A stretch of 25,326 nucleotides of DNA from Candidatus Multivoradales bacterium (GCA_965223155.1 CBDCVR010000007.1:1-25326), one strand, 5' to 3'; shown: positions 1 through 14,478, numbered from the stretch's first letter. Translations and numbers: made by a program. Notes: a model not told the origin generated them from the sequence alone.

Positions 1-2
1 TC

Positions 3-194
3 GAGGACGAAGAGCTCATCCGCCACTCGTCCGAGAACGCCCCCGTGGCTGCCGGAACGGAGCCAAGCGACGCCGGTGAGTACCGGGCGCCCGAGCTCGA
101 GAAGTTCACCGACATGGAAGAGCTCCTCGCCCTCGATCCCCCCACGCCGGGCGCTCTCGACAACTTGATGCGACAGCCGCTTGGCGACGACTAA
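3..194 (+). CDS. C-terminal part of a probable PqqD-family protein (5' end outside window)
   Basis: Frame from base 3 reads EDEELIR...GEYRAPELEKFTDMEELLALDPPTPGALDNLMRQPLGDD* (TAA 192-194). The YxxPxL..DM..LL.LDP tail resembles PqqD-family proteins found next to HPr-kinase-like genes. The PqqD domain itself is not in the window. Confidence 0.6.
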   Translation, partial: EDEELIRHSSENAPVAAGTEPSDAGEYRAPELEKFTDMEELLALDPPTPGALDNLMRQPLGDD

Positions 195-1226
195 TCGAAC
201 CGATCCGGTCGCGGCGAGCTTCGAGGAAGCCGCGCGCCGGTTCGCGCTTGCCACCGAGGCGGAGCCGCCGACCGCCGCCGACTACGACCTCGCCGGACAG
301 CACGTGGCGGTGCGAACGGTGGGCCACGAGCTGGGGACGGGAGCTCGCCCAACCCCTCGGCCACCTGACCGCCCACCGCACGAAGACACCCGCGCTCGAG
401 ATCGACCTCTGGCTCGGCTCAGAAACCGGAATCGACTGGCCGGAGCTCGCTGACGAGCTCGACCCCGCCGACCGGTTCCCGCTGCGCACCTCGGCCGACG
501 ATCGTTTCGTCGTGCACCGCCAGATCGAGACGGCCGTCTGGCTGGACCGCCAGGAAGGCGCATGGTGGGCGCCGTTCGCGATCTCGCTGGTAGATCTCTC
601 TATGAGCGCGGCCGGCCCCTGAAAACGCCGCTCACGGTCTGGATGCGCGACCGGAACGTTCAGGTCGCCCACGCCGCTTGCGTCGCCCTCGAAGGCCGCG
701 GAGCCCTCCTCCTGGGAGCTAGCGGCTCTGGCAAATCAACCCTGGCCGCTCGCTGCCTGGCGGCGGGCTTCGAGTTTCTGAGCGACGACAAGGTCGCTCT
801 TACCGGCGACGCCGCGACCGGATTCACCGGGCACAGCCTCAACAACTCCCTCCATCTCTCGGCCGATTCGATCGACCTGGTGCCCGAGCTGGCGGCCAGC
901 GCCGTAGCCCCGGCCACGAAGCTGGACGACAAGTTTCGGGTCCCACTCGCAGAGGGGCCGGTGGGCACCCCTGCTTCGCGCCCGCGCCGCCATCACCGTC
1001 CTGGTGCTGCCCCGGCTCGAGGCCGCGCCTGCAACTGGACGGGGCAAGCCCGCGCGAGGCTCTGCTCGCCCTCTCGCTCAGTACCCTGCTCTCGCTTCCG
1101 GTTCGGCGAGCGACCAGCCTCGACCGGCTGGCCGAAGCCGTCCGAGCCCTGCCGGCGCTTCATCTCGACGCCCGGGACGACGCCGCGCCCGAGCGGCTGC
1201 GCGAGATTCTGCGCAGCGGCGTCTAG
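181..1226 (+). pseudogene. HPr kinase/phosphorylase-like P-loop kinase, multiply frameshifted in this sequence
   Basis: Pieces from ORFs 181..453, 248..622, 562..1347 and later frames join into one protein with HAACV, Walker A GASGSGKST and FLSDD motifs. C-terminus ...ERLREILRSGV* (TAG 1224-1226). Shifts near 335, 560, 970, 1045 and 1170. Confidence 0.7.
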
Positions 1227-1255
1227 ACCCGAACCGCCCTCCGATCGGACGGCGC

Positions 1256-2318
1256 TCAGGAGCCCGGCCCGCGCCCTAGGAGCCGGTTGCCGATCCGCCG
1301 GGCCGGGAAGGTCACCGCCGTCCACGGATAGCGCGCGGCGATCTTGACCGCCGACCCCCACCACGGCCATCGCGAGAGGCCTTCGAGCCGGGCTGCGCGC
1401 AGGCCGCGGCGCACGAAAAAGTAGCGCCGATGCGGCCGGCGCCCGAGATCCTCCACGAGCCCCGAGAACCAGGGCCTGCGAGGCGGCAGCCAGCCGGCCC
1501 ATTCCGTCTCCTCCAGAAGACGAAAGAACTCCGGGGTGAAATCGTCCGGGCACTTGGGCATCCAGGGTTTCTCGACCCCGGCGAAATGGGCGACAGACGG
1601 CCTGGCAAGCGCCGCCTCGAACTCGTCGGCATCGAAGCAGGTCGAGCGGTGCGAGGGGATCTCCTGAACGTGGGTCATGCGATTCCAGACCAGAGGCAAT
1701 GGCGTCCAGCGCCCGGCCAGTGCGCAGTTGAGTCCCTGCTGGTCGGGCGACCAGAACTGCCGGCGGTAGCGAACCGCGAAGTCGATCGCCCGCCCGCAGA
1801 CGTCCTCGGCGCGCCAGCGGTCTAGTGGAATCAACATGAGCCCCCGAGTTGAAGACCGGCAGCGGCCGCGAAGCGTCGATCTCGGGAGGCACGAAGTGGT
1901 GGTGCAGATGATGCACCATCGTGTCCTGCACCGCCGCCACCAAACCGTCCGCAAAGTCCATCGACCACAGCGGCTCGAGGTCGGCCAGAACGATCATGTC
2001 CGCGTCCAGGAACAGGACCTTCGCCAGATCCCCTGGCAGCAAGCGATCCAGGACCAGGGGGACACAACTCGCCAGCGGAAATGAGTACTCGGCCAGGCCA
2101 GGGCGGCCAGCCGCTCACGGTTCAGCCGATGCCAGACCACGGCGACGCCGTCGCCACGCCAGGAGCGCGTCAGCCGTTCCCGGGTCCCCGGTCTCGAGTC
2201 CGGCGTCGATGGCATGAAACTCGAGCGGCCGCTTCGGGCCCCGATGCTCGATCACCGAAACGCCGAGCGCCGCCAAACCGATGGCGAAGCGCTCGTCGGC
2301 GCCCGCGACCACCACCAT
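1256..2318 (-). pseudogene. Glycosyltransferase family 8 domain, frameshifted in this sequence
   Basis: GT8 motifs spread across frames: VVVAGADERF (2115..2318), VLFLDADMIV and FNSG (993..2042), DQQGLN, WN and HFAGVEKPW (1256..1954). Confidence 0.8.
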
Positions 2319-2322
2319 CGGC

Positions 2323-3291
2323 TCATTCGAGGAGCCGCTCGTCTCGCCGGTCCACGTCTCGAGCCAGTGCCCGAGGTCGCGGCCGGTGATCGCCCTCGAC
2401 CCGGCGAACGTCGTCCGCGAACCGATCGTTGAGCCGGCGCCGGGTTTCCGTGCGCATCGTAGGCGGCTTGACCCAATTGAGCCGTCGGTTGACTGCCATC
2501 GCCGCCTCCCAGAGACGGCGCGACGACCCTCCGGGCAGCAACCTCTTGAGCGCCGAGCGCGTCGGACTGGGAGTGGTCAGCCAGTTCTCGGCCGCGGGCA
2601 GCCGGGTGATGCGGGCCCGATTGTGGCGCTCGCCCACGTCCACTTCGAAATCGTCCCGAACCCCGAGGAATCGAAAGAGCTCGACCAGAAACGACGCCGG
2701 ATCTCGCGCGAGGTCTTCGAAGAAGAGAACCTTGAGGCGTGCGGGCTCGAACAGGCGCAGATACCGCTCGAGCTGCTTCGCGTACAGCCCCTTCTGAACG
2801 TAGTGATACTGCTGACCCCAGTTCTCGGCAATCCGCCGCGGCTCGGCCGTCAAAGCCTCTTCGAAGCTCAAGGTCTCCTTGCCGCCTCTCAAGTTCATCA
2901 GATAGGCCGAGTAGGCGCGATCCGCCGGCTGGCGCAAGATCGCCACCAGCAGAGCCTCGCTGGCGTATCGCGCGATCTTCTCGGCCGCCCATTCGTCGTA
3001 CAGGTACAACGTCGTCGCTTCACCGGCGACCTTCTCGTCGGTGCGTCCGGCGAAAAGCGCTCGGTACTGCTCGAAAGTGCGGATACCGTCCGGGCGCCTC
3101 GTGGCTTCCAGCGGTCCCCCCCATCGCTCCCGTCCATCCACGAGGGCGAAAAACGCCGGCTCCTTGCGGGGCGACATATACACCTCAGGGTGCTGGCGCA
3201 GGTAATGGTACACCGAGGTCGTGCCCGCTTTCATGGCACCCAGAATCAAGAAGTCGGGCATCGCCCCGGAGCCGCTCCGCACGGTGAGCAT
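2323..3291 (-). CDS. PAPS-dependent sulfotransferase (probably continues into the GT8 domain)
   Basis: 5'-PSB motif PDFLILGAMKAGTTS, KEPAFF, GEATTLY and 3'-PB motif ILRQPADRAYSAY. The C-terminus appears shifted at about 2394. Confidence 0.88.
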   Translation of the reverse strand: MLTVRSGSGAMPDFLILGAMKAGTTSVYHYLRQHPEVYMSPRKEPAFFALVDGRERWGGPLEATRRPDGIRTFEQYRALFAGRTDEKVAGEATTLYLYDEWAAEKIARYASEALLVAILRQPADRAYSAYLMNLRGGKETLSFEEALTAEPRRIAENWGQQYHYVQKGLYAKQLERYLRLFEPARLKVLFFEDLARDPASFLVELFRFLGVRDDFEVDVGERHNRARITRLPAAENWLTTPSPTRSALKRLLPGGSSRRLWEAAMAVNRRLNWVKPPTMRTETRRRLNDRFADDVRRVEGDHRPRPRALARDVDRRDERLLE

Positions 3292-3355
3292 AATACTCCG
3301 CAGGCTCCGGCGCCTCGGCCCTTGCTATCCTGGCCTCGGGAGGACACCGCATTCG

Positions 3356-4076
3356 ATGCGAAATCTAGGTCTGGTCGGTCTGGCTCTTCTTCTCGCTCTG
3401 TCTTCGTTCGCCCCGGCGGCCGAGGCGGCGCGGATCCCCGATTGCCTCGACAATCCCGGCGTACCCGATCGGCTGGGTTTCACGCACCGAGTACCGATTC
3501 GCATTGGCGGCACATTCTGGTACTTCGCGGATCCGGGACTCCAGCTCTCCTCGACGCCGGACAACGTCGGCCAGCCGCAGGACATCCCCGGTCACTGCTG
3601 GTCGGTCTCGGCCCCCGCTGGGCCGGTATCCACGCTTCTTCGGGCACCACTACAACACCGGTCCGCTGGGAGCCGGGGCGCCCGGCCGGTTCTGGTCCAG
3701 CAATGCCCCGGATCACTCCCTGCTCTTTCTGGTCGACATCATCATCTCGCGCTGGACGCCCAAGCTCGCCCTCGAGCGCTTCAATGACGGCTACGTCCAC
3801 TACCACGAGCTGGTGCGCGAGGGCGACGGCTGCGTCCATCCCCGACTCGTGGCCTGGTTCAAGCACACGGCCATCGAGAGCTTCTCGTTCGACGGCGGGC
3901 CGCCGCCGGTGCTTCCGGACGGCACCTTCTTCCGGCCCCGCAACGTCCCGTTCAAAGTCAGGCCCGGCATCGCCCACGGCTTCATGGTCAACTACGACGT
4001 GCCCTACAAGCCGCAGCAGCAGCGCATCGGCCGCGAAGCGTTTCCGGTCGAAGTCTGCAAGCTGAGCCGCCAGTAG
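3356..4076 (+). CDS. Secreted hypothetical protein, one apparent frameshift near 3612
   Basis: ATG 3356 with GGAGG upstream and signal peptide MRNLGLVGLALLLALSSFAPAAEA. DIPGHCW in one frame continues as HHYNTGP...GYVHYHELV...WFKHTA...DGGP in ORF 3504..4076. The shift lies at a CCCCC run. Confidence 0.65.
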
Positions 4077-4099
4077 GGAATTCGGGAATTCGGTGACAG
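4077..4099 (+). repeat. Left half of REP-like motif (IS1111 target) with GGGAATTC duplication
   Basis: GGGAATTCGGGAATTCGGTGACAG rejoins with GATACATATTTC (5462-5473) when the IS is removed. Confidence 0.75.
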
Positions 4100-4189
4100 A
4101 TGAGATGAGTCGGTCGGTCTCCAGCTGGGACACTGTGCCAGTTGGAGATAACCAAGAATCGGCATCAGAGCCGAGAAAGGAGACCGACC

Positions 4190-5203
4190 ATGGAGTATCT
4201 TGGCATCGATGTTCACTCGAAGTACAGCGAGGTGTGTGGCGTATCAGAAGACGGTGAGGTGACGGTTCGCCGGCGGGTTCCGACGACCGAGACGGGCCTG
4301 CGAAGGTTCTTCGCCAATCGGGAACGCTCGCAGGTGACGCTCGAGAGCGGTCCGGTCACACCCTGGGTCTATCGACTGCTGTCTGAGCTCGGCCATGAGG
4401 TGATGGTGGTCAATCCACGCCGGGTACGTCTGATCGCGGAATCGACCCTGAAGACGGACGGAATCGACGCCGAGATCCTGGCTCGTTTGAGCCGGTTGGA
4501 TCTGGGTTTGCTTCGACCAGTCTACCAGCGCACAGGTGAGGCCCAAGAGCTTCGGACGCGTCTTCGGGTCCGAACGAGTCTGGTGAAGACCAGGACCTCG
4601 CTGATCAACTCCGTACGCGGAACGCTGCGGGCACAGGGCTACCGAGTGCCCTCATGTCCGGCGAAGAGCTTCGTGGCTCGGTACGCGTCGATGTCGGTCG
4701 AAGCCGGCCTGTTGGGAGCGCTCGAACCTCTGGTAACGACAATCGGCGAGCTGACCGATCGGATCCACCATCTCGAAGACGACCTCATCTCCGAGTCGAG
4801 ATCAAACGAGCTGGTCCGTCGGCTGCAGACGGTTCCTGGTGTGGGGCCTCTGGTGAGCCTTGCGTTCGTCGGCTGGATGGATCGTCCGGATCGGTTCGAG
4901 AAAAGCCGCGACGTCGGAGCGTGTCTGGGCTTGAGACCGTCGCTTCGCAGCTCAGGAGGGCATGAGGTCAGGGGCCGGATCACTCGCGAGGGCGACTCGG
5001 AGATGCGCAGACTCTTGGTGCAGGCAGCTCATGCGGCGTTGAACTGTCGCAAAGAGTCGTCACTCAAGAGATGGGCTGAGGGCCTGGTCGAGAGGCTGGG
5101 TAAGGGCAAGGCCGTGGTCGCGCTAGCTAGGAAGATCGCGGTGTTGCTCCACAGGCTGTGGGTGACAGGTGAGAGCTTCCGAGCCTTTCCCAAGGCAGCG
5201 TAG
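4190..5203 (+). CDS. IS110/IS1111-family DEDD transposase (RNA-guided recombinase), 337 aa
   Basis: RBS AAGGAG then ATG 4190. YLGIDVH, LESG and KTDGID (DEDD), VVNP, TVPGVG, GLRP..RSSGG (catalytic Ser region) and ALARK. Confidence 0.96.
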   Translation: MEYLGIDVHSKYSEVCGVSEDGEVTVRRRVPTTETGLRRFFANRERSQVTLESGPVTPWVYRLLSELGHEVMVVNPRRVRLIAESTLKTDGIDAEILARLSRLDLGLLRPVYQRTGEAQELRTRLRVRTSLVKTRTSLINSVRGTLRAQGYRVPSCPAKSFVARYASMSVEAGLLGALEPLVTTIGELTDRIHHLEDDLISESRSNELVRRLQTVPGVGPLVSLAFVGWMDRPDRFEKSRDVGACLGLRPSLRSSGGHEVRGRITREGDSEMRRLLVQAAHAALNCRKESSLKRWAEGLVERLGKGKAVVALARKIAVLLHRLWVTGESFRAFPKAA

Positions 5204-5235
5204 AAGAGATAACTAGACGACCAACAAGCAAGGAC

Positions 5236-5395
5236 GGATTGAGAGGTTCGATGACTCCGAAAGTATCCTTGGTGGCCCCGACACCGTGTGACAGATGGGA
5301 GCATCGATTCCTAAACGGACGCAAAACTCACCATGCACCGGTTCAAAGAAGAACCCTACAGAGTGCGAATAGAAGCTCGTCCCAAGCCTCGATCC
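5236..5395 (+). ncRNA. Predicted bridge/seek RNA of the IS1111 element
   Basis: Closing stem GGATTGAG/CTCGATCC. Loop 1 is closed by TCGATG-CTCC/GGAG-CATCGA and carries the target matches. Loop 2 is closed by GGACG/CGTCC and carries the donor match. Transcript ends unknown. Confidence 0.8.
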
Positions 5396-5461
5396 AAACC
5401 TAAGGAAAACTACAAAAAGAAGAAACGAAACTCTTGACGCCAACCGACCGACTCATAGAAG

Positions 5462-5580
5462 GATACATATTTCGGGACTGTCCCTCTGCGGCCGGACCCT
5501 TCCCTTGAAACGAGTATCCTGTCACCGAATCCGAATTCACCGAATCCGAATTCTGTCACCGAATCCGACACCGAATCCGG
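5462..5580. repeat. REP/REPIN-like repeat cluster with an empty IS target
   Basis: GGGACTGTCCC near-palindrome (5474-5484), full inverted motif GAAACGAGTATCCTGTCACCG (5507-5527), and four clustered copies of CACCGAATCCG. Confidence 0.8.
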
Positions 5581-5606
5581 ATTTAGTGAGATGATGGCCG
5601 GGCAGC

Positions 5607-7619
5607 GTGCACATCAAGCGTCGATTCAGGGGCGCCGCCGTTACGGCGGCCATCTGGACCGCGGTGGTGACCCCGGACCCCGCGGCGGCCCAGCCGGCGG
5701 TCGTCCGTGTCACGGTCACCCAGGTCACGGCCCTTGACTGCCTCGATCCGGCGGGTCTGTCGTGCGCCGGCGCCGACTTCTACGCCAAGCTGAGCGTCGA
5801 CGGCGAGACGGTCCAGACACCGCACATCGATGATGCGACCTCGATCTCGCCGAACTGGACGCTGGAGCGGTCCGTGGCCCGCAATCCGGTGCCCGTCCGG
5901 ATCGAGATCTGGGAGTCCGATAGCTGGTTCCGGGACGGCGACGACCCGGTGGATCTCAAGTCTGCCCCGGGCCGGAGCCTCAATCTCTCGGTCGACACCC
6001 AGGCCGGCAGAATCTCGGGCAACCTCACCGGCAGAACCAACACGGCCCTGACGTCGGCCGGAACCGAGTCCGGCCGGGCCCGAATCACCTTCCGCATCGA
6101 CGTCGTGACGCGTCCCAAGCTGGGAGAGCTCGCGATCACCGTGGAGCGCTTGACCACCCTCGAGACGGTGGACGACGGCGTCACCGGACGCCAAGGCCGG
6201 GCCGACTACTACGTCCGGGCAGCCATCGACGGCATCGTCACCAGCAACCGCGACGACCCGACCACCTCCGTCTACTGCGACCACGACGAGCTGGCTCCGT
6301 ACTGGACCTTCAAGCGAATCGTTAATCTGAACCGTCGCTCGATTCCGTTCGCCCTCGAGCTAATGGATGCCGACAACAACGCCGACGACCGGGTCGACAT
6401 CCAGCCCGGCCTAGGCCGGGTCCTGCACATGACGGTGACGCCGAGCACCTGCCGGATCCAAGGCGACGTCACCGGCCGTTGTGCCGGTCCGTTTGACGCC
6501 AGGGGGCGGATCGTGGCCTCCGGCGAACAGGACGACCGCGCACGCATCCAGGTCCGCGTCGAGCTGCGCCGGCCGCCGCCCTTCGCATTGCGCTGCCTAC
6601 ACTCGCCACTCTGGCCGCGTCCCGGACAAACGGTCTCGATCCGGGCCGAGGCCCTCGACAGCCAGCTCGACCCGGTGGTCGCGGACGGCATTCAAATCGG
6701 CGTCGCGGGCACCGGCAGGATCCACTCCTGCGACAACGCTGGGGCCTGCACTCTCAACGTCATGATGCCGGCGGGCGCGACACGGTTTGACTACATCTGC
6801 CAGGCGCAGCGCTTCCGCAGGACGGTCACGACCGGCCTACGCCAGGTAGCCGTCGGGGCCAGGCCCGGCGAGCGAGCCGTCCCGATCTTGAGACATCAAC
6901 CCTCAGCCAAGGCCCTCGACCTCGTGTTCCTGGCCGATCTCGACACCTTCTCGACCGCGTCCGAGACCGCCTATCTCGGCGCGGTCGAATTCTTGATCCG
7001 CTCCGGTCTCTTTCGGAATCCTCCGTTGGTCCTCAACCAACAACGTCTCAACCTGTGGATCGCCAAGGACCTGGCCGATGCCAACGGTTTCGTGCCGGGA
7101 AGCACGGTGCGCTGCAGCCAGCCGCCGTCGAACTGGACCACCGCTTACGGCTTCGCGGACTCGGGCATCGTCGTGCACCAAGAAGCGATTCGGGACTGCG
7201 CCGACTTCGCCACGGTCGGGCCTCAGGGCCAGATCTTGCGCCCGATGGTGAGCACTCCGGCCAACTCTCCCGGCGTTCTGCTACACGAGCTGGGGCACAT
7301 GCCCTTCGGCCTGGCCGACGAATACTGCTGTGACGGCGGCTACTTTCAAACCGGATTCGCCCCTAACGTCTACGCCTCGGCCAACGCGACCCAGTCGAGC
7401 GCGGCCTGCCGGGCCGATCCTCTTGCTGCTCTCCTGGGCGCCTGCGGCGCCTTCACCGAAAACCGCCCACCGAGCCGGCGGCGGGTGTTTCGCCTCGATC
7501 ACCCTCCAGGAAGCCGGTTCGACTTCCGTGACGTCTCGAACGACCTGATGGTGGACGACGGCACCCTCCGGCCCGCCGACGTTCGACGATTTCAACACGT
7601 GTTCCGAAGCCTTCCGTGA
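5607..7619 (+). CDS. Secreted multidomain zinc metallopeptidase (M64-like C-terminal domain)
   Basis: Probable signal peptide, two repeated beta-rich (C2-like) modules with AD(F/Y)Y...P.WT...D..DD.VD, then DLVFLAD and VLLHELGHMPFGLADEY (HExxH...GLxDEY). Confidence 0.8.
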   Translation: MHIKRRFRGAAVTAAIWTAVVTPDPAAAQPAVVRVTVTQVTALDCLDPAGLSCAGADFYAKLSVDGETVQTPHIDDATSISPNWTLERSVARNPVPVRIEIWESDSWFRDGDDPVDLKSAPGRSLNLSVDTQAGRISGNLTGRTNTALTSAGTESGRARITFRIDVVTRPKLGELAITVERLTTLETVDDGVTGRQGRADYYVRAAIDGIVTSNRDDPTTSVYCDHDELAPYWTFKRIVNLNRRSIPFALELMDADNNADDRVDIQPGLGRVLHMTVTPSTCRIQGDVTGRCAGPFDARGRIVASGEQDDRARIQVRVELRRPPPFALRCLHSPLWPRPGQTVSIRAEALDSQLDPVVADGIQIGVAGTGRIHSCDNAGACTLNVMMPAGATRFDYICQAQRFRRTVTTGLRQVAVGARPGERAVPILRHQPSAKALDLVFLADLDTFSTASETAYLGAVEFLIRSGLFRNPPLVLNQQRLNLWIAKDLADANGFVPGSTVRCSQPPSNWTTAYGFADSGIVVHQEAIRDCADFATVGPQGQILRPMVSTPANSPGVLLHELGHMPFGLADEYCCDGGYFQTGFAPNVYASANATQSSAACRADPLAALLGACGAFTENRPPSRRRVFRLDHPPGSRFDFRDVSNDLMVDDGTLRPADVRRFQHVFRSLP

Positions 7620-8269
7620 CGACTCGCATGCTCGACTACATCAGCCTTTCGAAGCTGCCCGATCCAACCGGGCTTCTCGGCACGTTCGTGCTGGCTGTCG
7701 CCGTCGCGCTGGCCGGCTGTGCCGTCGAGGAATCGGCCGAGCTGGGAACCGCCGCGACCCGGACCGAGCTCGTCCAACCGACGGTAGCGATCGAAGCGGT
7801 CGAGACCGCCCCGGCGGTGCCTCCGGCCGCAACCGTCGAAGCCGACCCTCCCGACGCCAAGGTCATCGCCGTGGACTTGACCGCCAGCGGCACCGGCGAC
7901 GACTTCGACGTCGAGCTGTCAAACGTTCGCATCCTCCCTGGGGTCGCGCCCAACACCGTCGGCAATCCCCCGCTTCTCGACATCGAGCTCCGGGATTCCG
8001 AGGGCGAGAGCCTGTCGCGCTTCTTCGCGTGGGATCCACGCTGGACCTTCGTCTGGGACGCCGACCACCGCGGGGAAGAGCTCGTAGTCCGGCAAGAAGC
8101 GACGGTGCCGGTACTCTTCCCGTTTCGGCCCGACCTCGCCGAGATGCTCGTCTTCACGGAACAGCAGGGACGCCGGCACCTCGCCTCGATCGACCTCGCA
8201 CCCACGATCCTCGATTTCTGCGCGGTCAATCCGGGAGATCCGGACTGCGCCGCGGTACGCGTGCCCTAG
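7616..8269 (+). CDS. Putative lipoprotein, partner of the peptidase
   Basis: GTGA overlap with the upstream stop, hydrophobic stretch and lipobox LAGC, Pro/Ala-rich linker, terminal Cys pair. Confidence 0.7.
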   Translation: MTTRMLDYISLSKLPDPTGLLGTFVLAVAVALAGCAVEESAELGTAATRTELVQPTVAIEAVETAPAVPPAATVEADPPDAKVIAVDLTASGTGDDFDVELSNVRILPGVAPNTVGNPPLLDIELRDSEGESLSRFFAWDPRWTFVWDADHRGEELVVRQEATVPVLFPFRPDLAEMLVFTEQQGRRHLASIDLAPTILDFCAVNPGDPDCAAVRVP

Positions 8270-8333
8270 GAATCCGCCCCTAGCCAGGCAGTCTGGCGGT
8301 CGAAACGGGGAAGATGCCGTCCACCGAATCCCC

Positions 8334-9482
8334 CTAGAGATCGCTTACCAATCGCGCGGCTGCGACAGCTCGCACCTTCTTGGACAGGGCAAACGTCTCT
8401 TGGCCCGCGTGGATCACGTTCAGCTCATGGAGGTCGAGCGACTCCAGCGCCGCTCTCATCGATGCCGTGACCCTAGGACTCGATGTCCGCTTGAACTCGA
8501 ATCCGATCCGGCGGCGGCCAATCCGAGCGAAGAAATCGAGCTCCGCGCCGGTGTGTGTAGCCCAGAAATGGACCTGGTCATCCGCGAGGCCAAGCTCGCC
8601 GATCACCTGTTCGAGCAGAAATCCTTCCCAGGAAGCTCCCACTTTGGGGTGCGACTCCAAATCCTCGTGCGCGTCGATTCGAAGAAGCGAATGCAGCAAT
8701 CCACTGTCGCGCAGATAGACCCTCGGAGACCGGACCTGGCGCTTCGAGGTATTTGCAAACCACGGCTGCGCCTGCCGGACAACGAGTGCCGATGTCAGAA
8801 GATCCAAGTAGCGACGGACCGTGACATCCGAAACTCCGAACGAACGCCCGAATTCGGATCCATTCCAAGTCTGGCCATGCCAGTGTGCCAGCATCGTCCA
8901 GAACCGCCGGAGCGTGGTCGCCCCAATCCGAATCCCGAGCTGCGGCAAATCTCGCTCCAAGAAGGTTCGCACGAAGCTCTCCCGCCATGTTCGGCTATCC
9001 CGGAGCGACCGAGCCAGGAAAGACCGAGGGAAGCCTCCGCGCAGCCAGAGCTTCTGAAGGGATCCCTCCCGTACCTCGGACAGCAAGAAGCCAGGCAGGT
9101 TGTAGTAGGAAATCCGACCCGCCAGGGTTTCGGACGACTGTCGCAACAGCTCGGGCGAAGCGCTTCCGAGCACTAGAAAGCGAGCTCTTGTCGGTCTTCG
9201 GTCGGCCAGGACACGAAGTACCGGAAAGAGATCCGGCCTGCGCTGAACCTCGTCGAGCACAACGAGGCCCTGGAGGTCACTGAGCGCCAAGTGGGGATCG
9301 TCAAGACGCGCAAGATCCGGAGGGTTTTCCAAATCGAAATGATGGCACGGCTTCGTTTGAGAGCGCGCGATCTGCTGACTCAGAGTCGTCTTACCGACCT
9401 GGCGGGCTCCCAGGATGGCAACCACGGGGAACGTCCGAAGCCGATCCAAGATTGTCTTGACATGATGAGACCGCTCGATCAC
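8334..9482 (-). CDS. AAA-family ATPase with DUF4143 domain
   Basis: GARQVGKTT, VVLDEVQR, LGSAS, ETLAGR, RGGFP, YLRDSGL and C-terminal ELDF...FEFK. Confidence 0.92.
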   Translation of the reverse strand: MIERSHHVKTILDRLRTFPVVAILGARQVGKTTLSQQIARSQTKPCHHFDLENPPDLARLDDPHLALSDLQGLVVLDEVQRRPDLFPVLRVLADRRPTRARFLVLGSASPELLRQSSETLAGRISYYNLPGFLLSEVREGSLQKLWLRGGFPRSFLARSLRDSRTWRESFVRTFLERDLPQLGIRIGATTLRRFWTMLAHWHGQTWNGSEFGRSFGVSDVTVRRYLDLLTSALVVRQAQPWFANTSKRQVRSPRVYLRDSGLLHSLLRIDAHEDLESHPKVGASWEGFLLEQVIGELGLADDQVHFWATHTGAELDFFARIGRRRIGFEFKRTSSPRVTASMRAALESLDLHELNVIHAGQETFALSKKVRAVAAARLVSDL

Positions 9483-9498
9483 CGGAGAACCTTACCAC

Positions 9499-9527
9499 GA
9501 AATCTCGAAGGTAAGCGTCGAAATTTC
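9499..9527. promoter_or_regulatory. Imperfect palindrome upstream of the ATPase (possible operator)
   Basis: GAAATCTCGA-N9-TCGAAATTTC, 9/10 complementary, 16 bp upstream of the GTG start. Confidence 0.4.
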
Positions 9528-9585
9528 AGGCAAGATTGCCGGCTGGCGGATGTTTATCCTCATCTCGCCAGGATCAGGCCTCGAC

Positions 9586-9613
9586 GAAATGAATACCCTG
9601 TCACCGAGAATTC
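9586..9613 (-). repeat. REP-like motif, unoccupied variant
   Basis: GAAATGAATACCCTGTCACCG-AGAATTC, 18/21 identical to 5507-5527. Abuts the stop codon of ORF 9612..10319. Confidence 0.75.
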
Positions 9614-10319
9614 ACGGGCCGGGGATACACGGTCGGCAGCGGCAGGTGAAGAAAAAGAAGAAGCACTTGCAGCATGCGAAGTCATCCGGATTGCCGCAGC
9701 TCACCTCGCAGCCGGAGAAGACCGAGCAGGTCACGCTACACGCGTTGGCGCCCTCGCCGCCGGCATCGCAGTCGTCACCGTTCACGCACTGCCCTGATGC
9801 CGGGTCGTGGTAGTCGTACCAGAACGACTCGGGCCAGGACTGGAGTTGGTCCCAAACGTGGTCGTGAACGCCGTGATCGATCCCGAAAAGCGGGCTGTTC
9901 GTCACCATCGCGAGCTCGAGTCCATTCGTCGCTCGAAAGACGAATGCTCCCGGAGGCGCCTGGCCTGGCCCTTCCCCGTTCCCGCTCCCGGAGGCGCCCT
10001 TCGGATTCCTGACCGTCAGCAGAACGACGAACCGCGCGTCGGGACCGACGACCTTGAGCGACCTGTCCTTGACGGTCACGACGGCGTCGTCGACGTGCTC
10101 CCACCAGGTCGGCTCCAGACGATCCTCGCCGGTGAAGAGAAAAAACTCGTCGACCTTGTCGTCGCTGTCGGCCGCGGAGTCCAAAGCAACAAGCACCCGC
10201 CCGAGCTCATCGACTCCAACCACGACGTCTCCAAACTCCACTCGCGCCGAGTCGCTCGATCCCAGCGCCGGACCGGCAATGAGACACGAGCACAGCACGA
10301 TCAGCGAAGAACACCTCAT
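9612..10319 (-). CDS. Secreted protein with Cys-rich C-terminal domain
   Basis: RBS GGAGGAG, signal peptide, and tail CVNGDDCDAGGEGANACSVTCSVFSGCEVSCGNPDDFACCKCFFFFFTCRCRPC (12 Cys). Confidence 0.8.
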   Translation of the reverse strand: MRCSSLIVLCSCLIAGPALGSSDSARVEFGDVVVGVDELGRVLVALDSAADSDDKVDEFFLFTGEDRLEPTWWEHVDDAVVTVKDRSLKVVGPDARFVVLLTVRNPKGASGSGNGEGPGQAPPGAFVFRATNGLELAMVTNSPLFGIDHGVHDHVWDQLQSWPESFWYDYHDPASGQCVNGDDCDAGGEGANACSVTCSVFSGCEVSCGNPDDFACCKCFFFFFTCRCRPCIPGP

Positions 10320-11410
10320 AGCTCCTCCGATCAGGGGCCGTCGGAAGCGAATGCCCCTCTACTTATCTAATTTCCGTAGCGAGGGGTTTCCTGACAAGAA
10401 ATTGCTGCTTCTTGAGCGGGGGAAAGCGGAGAAAGCGGTGACAGATGAGATGAGTCGGTCGGTCTCCAGCTGGGACACTGTGCCAGTTGGAGATAACCAA
10501 GAATCGGCATCAGAGCCGAGAAAGGAGACCGACCATGGAGTATCTTGGCATCGATGTTCACTCGAAGTACAGCGAGGTGTGTGGCGTATCAGAAGACGGT
10601 GAGGTGACGGTTCGCCGGCGGGTTCCGACGACCGAGACGGGCCTGCGAAGGTTCTTCGCCAATCGGGAACGCTCGCAGGTGACGCTCGAGAGCGGTCCGG
10701 TCACACCCTGGGTCTATCGACTGCTGTCTGAGCTCGGCCATGAGGTGATGGTGGTCAATCCACGCCGGGTACGTCTGATCGCGGAATCGACCCTGAAGAC
10801 GGACGGAATCGACGCCGAGATCCTGGCTCGTTTGAGCCGGTTGGATCTGGGTTTGCTTCGACCAGTCTACCAGCGCACAGGTGAGGCCCAAGAGCTTCGG
10901 ACGCGTCTTCGGGTCCGAACGAGTCTGGTGAAGACCAGGACCTCGCTGATCAACTCCGTACGCGGAACGCTGCGGGCACAGGGCTACCGAGTGCCCTCAT
11001 GTCCGGCGAAGAGCTTCGTGGCTCGGTACGCGTCGATGTCGGTCGAAGCCGGCCTGTTGGGAGCGCTCGAACCTCTGGTAACGACAATCGGCGAGCTGAC
11101 CGATCGGATCCACCATCTCGAAGACGACCTCATCTCCGAGTCGAGATCAAACGAGCTGGTCCGTCGGCTGCAGACGGTTCCTGGTGTGGGGCCTCTGGTG
11201 AGCCTTGCGTTCGTCGGCTGGATGGATCGTCCGGATCGGTTCGAGAAAAGCCGCGACGTCGGAGCGTGTCTGGGCTTGAGACCGTCGCTTCGCAGCTCAG
11301 GAGGGCATGAGGTCAGGGGCCGGATCACTCGCGAGGGCGACTCGGAGATGCGCAGACTCTTGGTGCAGGCAGCTCATGCGGCGTTGAACTGTCGCAAAGA
11401 GTCGTCACTC

Positions 11411-12782
11411 GAGTTATCGTCAAATGTTGTGTACGGGTGACTCAGGCGGCGATCCGGTTCTTGGGTTCTCCATCAACGAATTTGACACCTCGGACAACGT
11501 CGGCGATTCGCTTGTAGCCCTGTAGCCGCCGCCATCGTTTCTCGGCACTCTGGCTCAGCTTGAAGACCATCGAGAGCATGGTCTCGCGGGAGAGACAACC
11601 ACGGGTCTTGGCCGTTCGAAGGCGTACGGTGGCAAAGGTCGACTCGATCGGGTTCGTGGTCCTGAGATGGACCCAATGCTCGGCCGGGAAATCGTAGAAG
11701 GTCAGCAGGACCTTGCGATCCTTGGCCAGGCAACGCGTCGCCTTCGGGTACTTGGCCCCGTAGGTCGACAGGAAGGCATCGAAGGCTCGCTCGGCAGCCT
11801 CGCGCGTTTCGGCCATCCAGACCTGGTGCAGCGCCTGCTTGGCCTTTGGCTGGACGGCCTTGGGCATCTTGTTCAAGACGTTGCCGGTCTTGTGGACCCA
11901 GCAACGCTGGGTCTTGGTGTTGCTCCAGACCTGAGCCAGGGCCTTCCAGAAGCCCAGAGCGCCGTCACCGGTCGCCAGCTTCGGCTCGATGGCAAGCCCT
12001 CGCGCTTCGAGTCCACGCAAGAGCTCGAGCCAGGAAGCCTCGCTCTCGCGGTAGCCGTCTTCGACGGCGATGAGCTCCTTGGTGCCGTCCTCGGTGGCGC
12101 CAATCAGTACCAGCAGGCACAGCTTCGCGTCGTCCAGACGAGCCTTGGTATGGATCCCATCCGCCCACACGTAGACGTAGCGCTTGGAGGACAAGTCCCG
12201 GGTGCGCCAGTCGGTGTACTCCTTGGCCCAGACTTTCTTCAGACGGCTGATCGTCGCGGCTGACAACCCCGGGGCGTCGGGGCCTACCAGAGCTTCCAGG
12301 GCATCGGAGAAATCTCCGGTGGAGATGCCGCGCAGATAGAGCCACGGCAGCAGCTCCTCGACGCTCTTGGCCCGTCTGAGATACGGAGGCGCGATCTTCG
12401 AGCGAAAGACCAACTCACCTTCACGATCCCGAACCCGAGGCACCTTCACCGGCACACCTCCGATTCCCGTCTGGATCTCACGCTCGCGCAGGTAGCCGTT
12501 GCGAACCATGCGGCGCCGGCCATCTTCCGTTTGCTCGCCTCGGTACTCGGCCAGGAAGCTCTCGACCTCGGCTTCGATCGCTTCGCGAAGCAACTCGCGT
12601 GAGCCGCGGCGAAGCACTTCGGTCAAGGCATCTCTCGAACTCTCTGATCGGTCAATCGAAACTACGTTACTCTTGCTCAAGGCGTATCCTCCTTCTTTGA
12701 GGGTTTGAATCCGATTTGGAAAACCGGACTCAGGATACGCCGCCTTCATCTCAACTCATACACAACTTTCGACCATAGCTCC
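11411..12782 (-). mobile_element. IS256-family insertion sequence
   Basis: 8-bp target duplication CGTCACTC (11403-11410, 12783-12790). Imperfect terminal IRs GAGTTATCGTCAAATGTTGTGTA / TACACAACTTTCGACCATAGCTC. Confidence 0.95.
11442..12680 (-). CDS. IS256-family (Mutator-like) DDE transposase
   Basis: RNGY..R, VPRVRDR, YLRGISTGDF, VWADGI, TGDGALGF, QRCWVHK and TTNPIES motifs. Likely TTG start at 12680 after AAGGAGG. Confidence 0.95.
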   Translation of the reverse strand: MSKSNVVSIDRSESSRDALTEVLRRGSRELLREAIEAEVESFLAEYRGEQTEDGRRRMVRNGYLREREIQTGIGGVPVKVPRVRDREGELVFRSKIAPPYLRRAKSVEELLPWLYLRGISTGDFSDALEALVGPDAPGLSAATISRLKKVWAKEYTDWRTRDLSSKRYVYVWADGIHTKARLDDAKLCLLVLIGATEDGTKELIAVEDGYRESEASWLELLRGLEARGLAIEPKLATGDGALGFWKALAQVWSNTKTQRCWVHKTGNVLNKMPKAVQPKAKQALHQVWMAETREAAERAFDAFLSTYGAKYPKATRCLAKDRKVLLTFYDFPAEHWVHLRTTNPIESTFATVRLRTAKTRGCLSRETMLSMVFKLSQSAEKRWRRLQGYKRIADVVRGVKFVDGEPKNRIAA

Positions 12783-12960
12783 CGTCACTCAAGAGATGGG
12801 CTGAGGGCCTGGTCGAGAGGCTGGGTAAGGGCAAGGCCGTGGTCGCGCTAGCTAGGAAGATCGCGGTGTTGCTCCACAGGCTGTGGGTGACAGGTGAGAG
12901 CTTCCGAGCCTTTCCCAAGGCAGCGTAGAAGAGATAACTAGACGACCAACAAGCAAGGAC

Positions 12961-13120
12961 GGATTGAGAGGTTCGATGACTCCGAAAGTATCCTTGGTGG
13001 CCCCGACACCGTGTGACAGATGGGAGCATCGATTCCTAAACGGACGCAAAACTCACCATGCACCGGTTCAAAGAAGAACCCTACAGAGTGCGAATAGAAG
13101 CTCGTCCCAAGCCTCGATCC
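12961..13120 (+). ncRNA. Predicted bridge/seek RNA, copy 2
   Basis: Same sequence as 5236-5395 (offset 7725). Confidence 0.78.
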
Positions 13121-13220
13121 AAACCTAAGGAAAACTACAAAAAGAAGAAACGAAACTCTTGACGCCAACCGACCGACTCATAGAAGGATACTCATTCCGC
13201 CAGGTCGGAGCCCCGGTTTC

Positions 13221-13355
13221 CGTCTCGGTAGCATTGTTGTGCCCGGACTGGCACACCACGTCACTCAGCGGGGAGCGAGGCGAATGCAGGTCTTCTTCAG
13301 CCAAGACGACTACCGCATCTATGCCTCCATCTTGAGCCGACAGGCCCGTCGATAA
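13221..13355 (+). pseudogene. N-terminal remnant of a Y1 HUH (RAYT/IS200-like) transposase
   Basis: RLGSIVVPGLAHHVTQRGARRMQVFFSQDDYRIY...RR* matches the R....PG..HHVTQRG..R..VF....DY..Y start of RAYT-type Y1 transposases. No proper start codon, and it stops before the HUH motif. Not in the ORF track. Confidence 0.78.
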
Positions 13356-13428
13356 GGCACCTGGGCCCAGGGAGGGGGAATTCTCTTCTTGCCAATGCCC
13401 TCCTCCCAGTGCCGAGTGCAGCGAGGCT

Positions 13429-13473
13429 TGGTGGGCCGTGAGGGAATCGAACCCCCGACCATCAGATTAAAAG
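13429..13473 (-). tRNA. 3' fragment of tRNA-Lys(UUU), attachment-site duplication (not a complete tRNA)
   Basis: Minus strand CTTTTAA-TCTGA-TGGTC-GGGGG-TTCGATT-CCCTC-ACGGCCC-ACCA gives the anticodon loop, T arm, acceptor 3' strand and CCA. The 5' half is absent. Confidence 0.88.
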
Positions 13474-13590
13474 CCGCCCCAAGCAGTCCCGAGCAGGACA
13501 ACCAGGGACAAATAAGGCCATTAGTTTCAGCAGTTTACAGAGAACTCCATTGTCCCTCTCAGTCCTCGTTTTGCCCCGTTTGGCCGCCCG

Positions 13591-13638: not shown

Positions 13639-14478
13639 GTGGTCCGTGGGGCGCAGCGCCGGCACTTCTCCACCGCACCGGCGGAACCGAGCGACATCGG
13701 CTTCATGGCGCGTCCCTTCGTGCAGGCAACGCTGCCGCACAGGGATACCCAGGCCCTCGTTCATACCCGCCACAACGGCCGCCTGACGCTCAAGATCACT
13801 GGCGACAAAGACCTCGGCCTCCCCTACGGCCGGTACCCGCGACTGCTGCTCGCCTGGATGACTCGCGAGGCCTGCCGCACGAAATCACGCCGCCTCGAGC
13901 TCGGGCACTCGCTGTCCAGCTTCATGGCGCAACTCGGCCTCACACCCACCGGTGGGCGGTCAGGCACGATCCCGCGCCTGCGCGACCAGATGGCCAGGCT
14001 CTTTCTCTCGACAGTCTCGTTCACCGACTACGACCCGGGCGCAGGCAGGCTCGCCGACGATCGCTTCACCATCGCTGACAAGACTCGTCTCTGGTGGTCG
14101 CCGTCCGAGGAGAGAGAGCAGCCCTTCTGGGGCTCCTTCGTCGTCCTCAGCGAGCTCGGCTTTCGAGCCCTGTCCGAAAGACCGGTGCCAGTCGACATGG
14201 CGACCCTCCGAAGCCTGCGCAGCCCGCTGGCACTCGACATCTACTGCTGGCTCACCTACCGCAACAGCTACCTGCAGCGACCGACTCGGATTCCCTGGCC
14301 TGCTCTCGCCGCTCAGTTCGGTGGGAGCTACAACGACCGGCGAAACTTCAAGCGGAAATTCAGGGCGGCGCTACGCCAGGTCCTCATGCTCTACCCAACC
14401 GCACGCGTCTCACAGGTTCCTGGAGGCCTGCAGCTCATCCCCTCACCTAGTCACATCCAGCGACACATCGAACAGTGA
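13639..14478 (+). CDS. repA: Plasmid-type replication initiator (RepA_C / IncW RepA-like)
   Basis: FMARPFVQATLPH, GLPYGRYPRLLLAW, TGGRSGTI.RLRDQM.RLF, PVPVD, SPLALDIYCWLTYR and W..L..QFG. Start codon uncertain. Confidence 0.85.
   Translation: MVRGAQRRHFSTAPAEPSDIGFMARPFVQATLPHRDTQALVHTRHNGRLTLKITGDKDLGLPYGRYPRLLLAWMTREACRTKSRRLELGHSLSSFMAQLGLTPTGGRSGTIPRLRDQMARLFLSTVSFTDYDPGAGRLADDRFTIADKTRLWWSPSEEREQPFWGSFVVLSELGFRALSERPVPVDMATLRSLRSPLALDIYCWLTYRNSYLQRPTRIPWPALAAQFGGSYNDRRNFKRKFRAALRQVLMLYPTARVSQVPGGLQLIPSPSHIQRHIEQ

Follow-up and report, generated by a model that had tools for sequence, protein, structure and literature searches.

An IS1111-type insertion sequence with predicted RNA guides and its repetitive extragenic targets in a Candidatus Multivoradales genome

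Insertion sequences (ISs) of the IS110 family were described in 2006 as the group most represented among elements that use repetitive extragenic palindromes (REPs) as targets (PMC1525189), and RNA guidance was shown in 2024 for both IS110-type and IS1111-type elements (PMC11208160, PMC11187229). We have analyzed a 25,326-nt stretch of DNA from Candidatus Multivoradales bacterium (GCA_965223155.1, CBDCVR010000007.1:1-25326; hereafter the window), which constitutes the entire contig C7 (25.3 kb) of a 4.0-Mb assembly of 15 contigs with 67% G+C, and which carries two copies of an IS1111-type element inserted into a short repeated motif. The best explanation, in which we place high confidence, is that this IS is guided by RNA into the REPs of a system of the REP-associated tyrosine transposase (RAYT) type. 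An earlier note on this DNA had proposed that an RNA-guided IS parasitises another repeat system offering intergenic safe sites, and this proposal is supported by tests of the IS family, the guides, the independence of the REP, the RAYT link, and site occupancy. REP targeting by IS110-family elements is already established, and the element described here is a further clear example that leaves the accepted picture of IS110-family biology unchanged. Specific to this case are the host phylum, which is little studied, the decayed RAYT, and a clean natural arrangement in which the target, the guides, the empty sites, and the re-aimed relatives are all legible in the sequence; a possible change of target by a sibling IS, toward a second repeat family, would be a further such feature.

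The founding bridge-RNA element, IS621 of E. coli (IS110 group), for which insertion in REPs was shown in 2003 (cited in PMC11208160), resembles the present element in having a DEDD recombinase with PF01548 and PF02371, a single insertion position in REPs, two guides that pair with opposite target strands and overlap at a 2-nt core (AG here, which is CT on the other strand), and scarless insertion (PMC11208160). It differs in that the IS621 RNA is encoded upstream of the gene, within the left end, and the IS621 subterminal repeats measure 2-3 bp, whereas here the putative RNA lies downstream and the repeats measure 14 bp; furthermore, the two proteins are distant (E 6e-10) and the guide order is reversed. 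The IS1111 elements with seekRNAs (ISEc11, ISKpn4, IS1111, the attC-targeting group, and IS4321 / IS5075) share with the present IS the subterminal repeats, 7- and 3-nt extensions, a non-coding region downstream of tnp, a transposase of ~339 aa, the guide order, and natural re-aiming (PMC11187229). The targets of these studied members are attC sites, Tn21 ends, and other sequences of Proteobacteria, whereas the target here is a RAYT-type REP in a Thermoanaerobaculia-like acidobacterium.

All copies of ISPpu9, ISPpu10, and ISPa11, IS110-family elements of Pseudomonas, likewise lie in REPs (7/7, 7/7, and 6/6, respectively; PMC1525189). ISPpu9 has a small-RNA gene downstream of its transposase gene (PMC12288879), and ISPpu9 and ISPpu10 are the current experimental models of REP targeting (PMC12288879, 10.64898/2026.03.19.712850). 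The present element differs from these three in phylum, REP sequences, and guides, and is known from sequence alone. The target repeats, in turn, compare with REP-RAYT systems in being short and extragenic, in forming inverted hairpin doublets (REPINs), and in bracketing a single Y1 / HUH gene; they depart from such systems in their low copy number (~48), in the lack of a clear palindrome within a single unit, and in the decay of the RAYT in this genome.

The element, its insertion sites, and the repeat family

The IS at 4100-5461 belongs to the IS110 family and represents an active element of IS1111 type (coordinates of all features are collected in Table 1). Its transposase scores well above the cut-offs of Pfam PF01548 (DEDD_Tnp_IS110; 87.8 bits, cut-off 29), Pfam PF02371 (Transposase_20; 75.5 bits, cut-off 21.3), and the NCBIfam equivalog transpos_IS110 ('IS110 family RNA-guided transposase'; 241.3 bits, cut-off 140), and shows distant similarity (E ~1e-10) to two solved transposases, those of IS621 and ISCro4. 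Among 8000 scored proteins, 2801 are related to this transposase at E <=1e-30. Alignment with solved relatives places the conserved motif G..P....SG, as given in PMC11187229, at GLRPSLRSSG. The 2-nt core AG is ambiguous at the junctions, such that the limits of copy 1 can equally be written as 4098-5459; when the core is given to the left end, the terminal extensions outside the subterminal repeats are AGATGAG (7 nt) and AGA (3 nt), lengths that are the rule for IS1111 elements (PMC11187229). The larger non-coding region, 258 nt vs 90 nt upstream, lies downstream of the transposase gene.

BLAST searches of the genome revealed 14 full-length copies at 99.9-100% identity which, together with the interrupted copy 2 of the window, make 15 insertions, as well as two siblings at 82% identity and a 40-nt left-end fragment. 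All 15 insertions are preceded by GGTGACAG and have the same orientation relative to the motif; the right flank is GATAC in 14 of them and GATGC in the other, and insertion occurs without target duplication. Precise insertion is also visible at loci that exist in two states. The copy 2 locus is intact and empty at C14:366085, inside a stretch 98.9% identical to the window, and the insertion at C11:2930 is matched by an empty locus at C14:574419, the flanks of the two being 94% identical. Four public runs of one study contain the stretch as contigs, and each of the four has a contig joining 10442 to 13185 as an empty site; given that C7 and C14 do not differ over the flanks 9800-10444 and 13185-13455, this joint is indistinguishable from the C14 locus and provides no independent evidence of polymorphism.

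Four copies of the motif in the window, two occupied and two empty, were found exactly where the earlier note had placed them. At the occupied copies, CGGTGACAG abuts the IS on the left (4091-4099 for copy 1 and 10436-10444 for copy 2). The empty copy at 5507-5527 (minus strand) reads CGGTGACAGGATACTCGTTTC and that at 9586-9606 (minus strand) reads CGGTGACAGGGTATTCATTTC; as the note had said, the former matches the guides fully and the latter has two mismatches, with GGTAT instead of GATAC in the part facing the right guide. A fifth, degenerate copy at 5548-5561 (minus strand), absent from that list, reads CGGTGACAGAATTC. A 34-nt unit (CTGTCACCGAATCCGA...) adjoining the empty REP is tandemly duplicated at 5519-5583, and this duplication gave rise to the extra partial copy. 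Matches to a 14-mer at up to 2 mismatches number three in the window, as compared to a shuffle mean of 0.19, and none of 100 shuffles reaches three. The inverted pair that copy 1 and 5507-5527 were said to have formed before insertion is likewise borne out, in that the pair with the IS removed folds as an 85-nt DNA hairpin (-23.4 kcal/mol, z = -5.4).

The motif is a repeat family in its own right, independent of the IS and intergenic. After removal of IS copies by script, a position weight matrix (PWM) built from 41 seed sites identified 48 sites at a score of at least 14, vs 1.5 in third-order Markov null genomes; 33 of them are unoccupied and 15 occupied. The conserved unit measures ~26 nt, with the consensus GAAWTC GGTGACAGGATAC NTATYYC, and its 13-mer GGTGACAGGATAC occurs exactly 17 times in the genome (reversed-pattern control, 0). 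Conservation beyond the guide-matched bases, as noted before, is real: base composition is biased at -6 to -1 and at +13 to +19, both in this genome and among 158 distinct copies from other Acidobacteriota. All 31 exact genome matches of the 12-nt guide-matched sequence lie in REP repeats. Forty of the 48 sites fall wholly outside predicted genes, although just 18% of the genome is non-coding (p = 1e-22). Genes were taken from a crude self-trained open reading frame (ORF) caller covering 82% of the genome; since this caller always uses the first start codon, the ORF starts around sites called inside genes, which lie 14-442 nt away, are probably over-extended and the calls probably spurious.

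Neighbouring sites on opposite strands up to 200 nt apart are convergent in 17 of 17 pairs. Folding as a DNA hairpin is strong for six compact pairs of 71-85 nt (z between -5.4 and -9.7), among them the one re-formed when copy 1 is taken out; for five wider pairs, z ranges from -1.7 to -4.6. The REPINs show a conserved 45-nt spacer. Hairpin formation by a single REP was also considered, some flanks being complementary by eye with compensating changes, and was dropped after three units behaved as shuffles; the REPIN hairpin was kept.

Outside this genome, the 13-mer occurs in 11 of the family's 18 other genomes and in one of 12 genomes of the order's other families (a single copy, in G030), with the reversed control at 0 in every genome searched. 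DNA of the IS was not matched in four of these same-family genomes, G010 (68 motif copies, mostly in inverted pairs), G014 (18), G018 (7), and G013 (6); these are draft genomes, and the IS is therefore recorded as not found rather than absent. Taken with the far-above-chance count, the unoccupied sites, and the intergenic and convergent positions, these genomes confirm the earlier suggestion of an independent repeat family, and the motif is neither at chance frequency nor restricted to former IS sites. The inverted pair was found in 63 public-genome stretches, of which 60 are titled Thermoanaerobaculia, Bryobacterales/Bryobacteraceae, Acidobacteriaceae, or Acidobacteriota and three carry other labels. 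The same 13-nt core in inverted pairs is common to metagenome-assembled genomes labelled Thermoanaerobaculia and Bryobacterales/Bryobacteraceae, which are different classes of Acidobacteriota, and is also seen in the three contigs with non-acidobacterial labels; this cross-class occurrence suggests that the REP-RAYT unit is either anciently conserved or has spread horizontally.

Tabulation of occupancy against guide mismatches, which the earlier note had called for, shows that occupancy drops as mismatches rise. Genome-wide, 14 of 31 sites with no mismatch to GTGACAGGATAC are occupied, as compared to 1 of 11 with one mismatch and 0 of 88 with two. Small contigs C5, C8, and C11 are versions of chromosomal regions at 94-98% identity and may represent a second strain or real duplications, such that copy counts including small contigs are not independent; on the three large contigs, counting repeat sites only, the corresponding values are 10/26, 1/9, and 0/6. 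Perfect sites are occupied in 8 of 21 paired and 6 of 10 unpaired cases, and no pair is filled on both arms, numbers that are too small to support a conclusion about pairing.

Association of the repeat with RAYT genes

Adjacency of the REP to RAYT genes is observed in relatives. In G014, a gene of 219 aa, hereafter the G014 RAYT (Pfam Y1_Tnp, 35.5 bits, cut-off 23), is bracketed by exact inverted copies of the motif, one 74 nt upstream of the start codon and the other directly after the stop codon. Among ten homologous loci elsewhere, seven have a copy with up to 2 mismatches just upstream and in the orientation of the gene; the loci each have their own repeat variant (GGATAC, GTTTAC, GGCTAC, or GGAAAC), and those designated L014 and L017 are bracketed by variants on both sides. 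In the window, an N-terminal RAYT remnant begins 22 nt downstream of the copy 2 REP, in the same orientation. It matches RAYT homologues in eight other genomes (E 2e-18 to 5e-7) and is 58% identical to residues 3-54 of the G014 RAYT; a Pfam search of 55 aa of the remnant gave no match. When the genome was queried with the G014 RAYT, two N-terminal remnants (C7 and C14) and one C-terminal remnant were obtained, the latter at C14:1236903, between an IS-occupied REP and its partner. A PF01797 search gave a sole match, at C14:32014, which was set aside as an IS200-type TnpA with no motif nearby. A literature search combining Acidobacteria or Acidobacteriota with RAYT or REPIN yielded no such system among the matches listed, which is a weak basis for calling it unpublished.

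Several results weigh against assigning the repeat to a RAYT-type system. Neither the PF01797 search nor the G014 RAYT query found an intact RAYT in this genome, so that the REP-RAYT link rests on relatives and the REPs here, their RAYT having decayed to fragments, are orphans. The G014 RAYT scores 68.6 bits against NCBIfam REP_Tyr_transpos, below the cut-off of 80 (E 5e-19), three single REP units fold no better than shuffles (z -0.6 to +0.6), and ~48 copies is a low number for a REP family. The first three of these points bear on the strongest of the competing explanations, in which a genuine repeat serves the IS as target without being mobilised by a RAYT; it could be MITE-like (resembling a miniature inverted-repeat transposable element), protein-binding, or terminator-like, its adjacency to RAYT genes being secondary. 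The non-palindromic single unit would fit such a repeat, as would G010, in which 68 copies are accompanied only by a weak RAYT-like match (32% identity) at a contig end. It is nevertheless difficult to reconcile with a RAYT gene bracketed by inverted copies with locus-specific variants, which is the defining REP-RAYT arrangement, and with the fact that both RAYT remnants in this genome adjoin REPs. We consider this alternative unlikely and retain a RAYT-type system as the probable source of mobility of these REPs.

Guide segments and the predicted RNA

The non-coding region downstream of the transposase gene is predicted to encode a guide RNA. A consensus fold computed from five related non-coding regions consists of an outer stem enclosing two modules: the first is a stem with an internal loop in which two putative guide segments stand on either side of a small hairpin, and the second is a hairpin flanked by conserved single-stranded segments, one of which is ATAGAAG. 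In many IS1111 bridge RNAs the bases that bind the donor are found in a multi-loop (Durrant et al., PMC11208160); ATAGAAG is a candidate donor-binding segment. The stems are nearly invariant among the five sequences, with variation concentrated in the two guide segments. The segment complementary to the top strand (5263) precedes the one matching the bottom strand (5288), which is the order reported for IS1111-type seekRNAs (PMC11187229), and both segments contain the core, as in the bridge-RNA model (PMC11208160).

Comparison with related IS copies indicates that the predicted guides co-vary with the flanking DNA. In the present IS the left segment GTGACAG fits its flank at 7/7 positions and the right segment GTATCCT fits AGGATAC at 7/7. 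GTGACAG is replaced by GTGCCAG in relatives with the left flank GGTGCCAG; the IS in G002 accordingly pairs GTGCCAG with GGTGCCAG (7/7) on the left, and on the right AAGTGGGT with ACCCACTT (8/8). The sibling at C15:372322 shows a 6/7 fit of GTGCCAG to GTTCCAG on the left and an 8/8 fit of AAAAGGGT to ACCCTTTT on the right. The left guide fits at 7/7 in the remaining relatives as well, namely the sibling at C13:297859, the IS in G004, and three copies of the IS in G039. These natural guide/target pairs (GTATCCT/GTGACAG, AAGTGGGT/GTGCCAG, and AAAAGGGT/GTGCCAG) could be used as test cases for IS1111-type RNAs.

Guidance by this RNA also faces contrary evidence. The fit on the right side is imperfect in G004 (GTAACCT vs AGGCTAC, 6/7), at C13:297859 (6/8), and in G039 (6/8, 6/8, and 5/8). 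Compensatory change is seen in just 2 of 36 consensus pairs among the five sequences, the non-coding region folded as a single sequence does not surpass its shuffles (z = +0.46), and the 5' side of the putative donor loop has no clean match to the left end. A search of 3900-13500 against Rfam gave no family at E <=1, although Rfam 15 may hold no bridge-RNA or seekRNA model. Among the RNA runs searched, none contained more than 0.05 of the sampled words of the stretch, and the four runs that do contain it consist of DNA-type contigs.

It may be asked whether the transposase instead reads the REP or REPIN by DNA shape or protein-DNA contacts, the matches in the non-coding region being incidental. 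Each guide match covers just 7 nt, the fold of a single sequence is not significant, and the target sites lie in strong hairpins; moreover, a target stem-loop adds specificity for ISPpu10 (10.64898/2026.03.19.712850). On the other hand, in related IS copies the guide segments change while the stems stay fixed, and new segments match new flanks at 8/8 and 7/7. Six of ten unpaired perfect sites are occupied, hence a hairpin partner does not seem to be required, and RNA guidance has been established experimentally for the IS110 family (PMC11187229, PMC11208160). Recognition by protein alone is, in our judgement, very improbable. Still less credible, to the point of being negligible, is that the motif is a product of the IS (footprints, solo ends, or sites of past insertion). 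Despite the occupancy of 15 of 48 high-scoring sites and the coincidence of the 12-nt core with the guide-matched bases, the motif shares no sequence with the IS ends, is conserved for ~7 nt beyond either end of the guide match, pairs up into REPINs whose 45-nt spacer is conserved, abounds in genomes that gave no match to the IS, and brackets RAYT genes.

Under the preferred reading of an RNA-guided IS1111-type element, a seekRNA or bridge RNA of ~150 nt would be transcribed from the non-coding region downstream of the transposase gene and would present two short guide segments, both including the core AG, in one internal loop. Once made and bound, this RNA would direct the DEDD transposase, and its pairing would drive target choice, such that the circular IS recombines with GTGAC-AG-GATAC, without target duplication and always in one orientation. 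The 12-mer target is the most conserved part of the ~26-nt REP. Since the target is an intergenic REP that flanks RAYT genes in relatives, the IS would draw its harmless landing sites from a different mobile-repeat system. It continues to be maintained and to multiply on REPs with an already decayed RAYT, which indicates that an IS can go on using REPs after the loss of the REP's own transposase.

Sibling elements, feature coordinates, and genomic setting

The 82% sibling IS at C15:372322 appears to target a second hairpin repeat. This sibling, with the guides GTGCCAG and AAAAGGGT, has GAGGTTCC to the left and CCTTTTCGCAAG to the right of the core, and the flanks GAGGTTCC-AC-CCTTTTCGCAAG reproduce one arm of another hairpin repeat, intact copies of which are found at C14:172055-172113 and 185511-185569; the sibling at C13:297859 sits in a variant of it. 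The second hairpin family is also seen at C14:187763 and has arms GGTTCCACCC(C/T)TTTCG and a conserved spacer. Because this family is small (nine matches at up to 2 mismatches, not all convincing), retargeting of the sibling is treated as a lead. It is conceivable, although we would not call it probable, that one IS1111 lineage of this acidobacterial genus has switched between different REPIN families through changes limited to two guide segments of 7-8 nt. If this were general, REP families would be exchangeable landing pads for RNA-guided ISs, and the IS would be the main splitter and inactivator of REPINs, a parasite on a parasite that outlives it.

Table 1. Positions of the IS copies, REPs, predicted guide RNA, and associated features in the window.
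Feature	Position	Strand	Remarks
Left half of occupied REP, copy 1	4085-4099	+	GAATTCGGTGACAG
IS copy 1	4100-5461	+	1362 bp, intact
Left subterminal inverted repeat	4105-4118	+	ATGAGTCGGTCGGT; 14-nt reverse-complement match with 5443-5456
Transposase gene	4190-5203	+	337 aa, DEDD / IS110 family
Predicted seekRNA / bridge RNA, ~152 nt	5231-5382	+	Consensus fold of 5 related sequences; downstream of transposase gene
Putative guide segment GTATCCT	5263-5269	+	Complement of top-strand AGGATAC (core + right target half)
Putative guide segment GTGACAG	5288-5294	+	Same as top-strand left half + core, hence complementary to bottom strand
ATAGAAG, candidate donor-binding segment	5369-5375	+	Equals last 7 nt of IS right end; invariant in 5/5 related non-coding regions
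Right subterminal inverted repeat	5443-5456	+	ACCGACCGACTCAT; 14-nt reverse-complement match with 4105-4118
Right half of occupied REP, copy 1	5462-5473	+	GATACATATTTC
Empty REP, perfect guide match	5507-5533	minus	Inverted partner of copy 1's REP, with which it makes up a REPIN
Degenerate REP copy	5548-5561	minus	GGTGACAGAATTC; inside 34-nt tandem duplication 5519-5583
Empty REP, 2 mismatches in right half	9586-9612	minus	
Left half of occupied REP, copy 2	10430-10444	+	Same locus empty at C14:366085
IS copy 2	10445-13186	+	Pieces at 10445-11410 and 12783-13186; interruption follows base 966 of the copy
Nested IS256/Mutator-type IS	11411-12782	minus	1372 bp
Right half of occupied REP, copy 2	13187-13198	+	GATACTCATTCC
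N-terminal RAYT-like (Y1 / HUH) transposase remnant	13221-13352	+	44 aa, ends in stop codon

An 8-bp target duplication, CGTCACTC, lies on either side of the element that interrupts copy 2 (11403-11410 and 12783-12790), and the transposase gene of this element (11442-12749, 435 aa) scores 221.7 bits against Pfam Transposase_mut. Five near-identical copies of this IS256-type element are present in the genome, the others being at C14:571680, C11:5664, C13:299686, and C15:374675. The region C13:297800-307800 constitutes a 10-kb hot spot with three REPINs, extra REPs, two IS copies, and an 82% sibling IS, together with an IS256-type copy and an inverted, solitary left end of 40 nt.

Window positions 1-10444 (~10.4 kb) are 98.9% identical to C14:355657-366092. 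Similarity picks up again at window position 13185, where 13185-13485 corresponds to C14 up to 366393, and is followed by divergence; overall identity between the window and C14:355657-366393 is 98.7-98.9%. The similarity ends at ~13429-13485 (minus strand), within what looks, by its arm sequences, like the 3' part of a tRNA; ARAGORN called no tRNA in the window. Loose contig ends at 13473 run on into a tRNA-like 5' half, and the region at ~13429-13485 may be an attachment-site remnant of an integrated element. Just past the end of chromosome similarity, an ORF at 13639-14478 (+) matches Pfam RepA_C (plasmid-encoded RepA protein) at 94 bits; C7 possibly is, or includes, a plasmid-like or integrative element. 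Between both IS copies, a gene at 8334-9482 (minus strand) encodes an AAA_14 plus DUF4143 ATPase.

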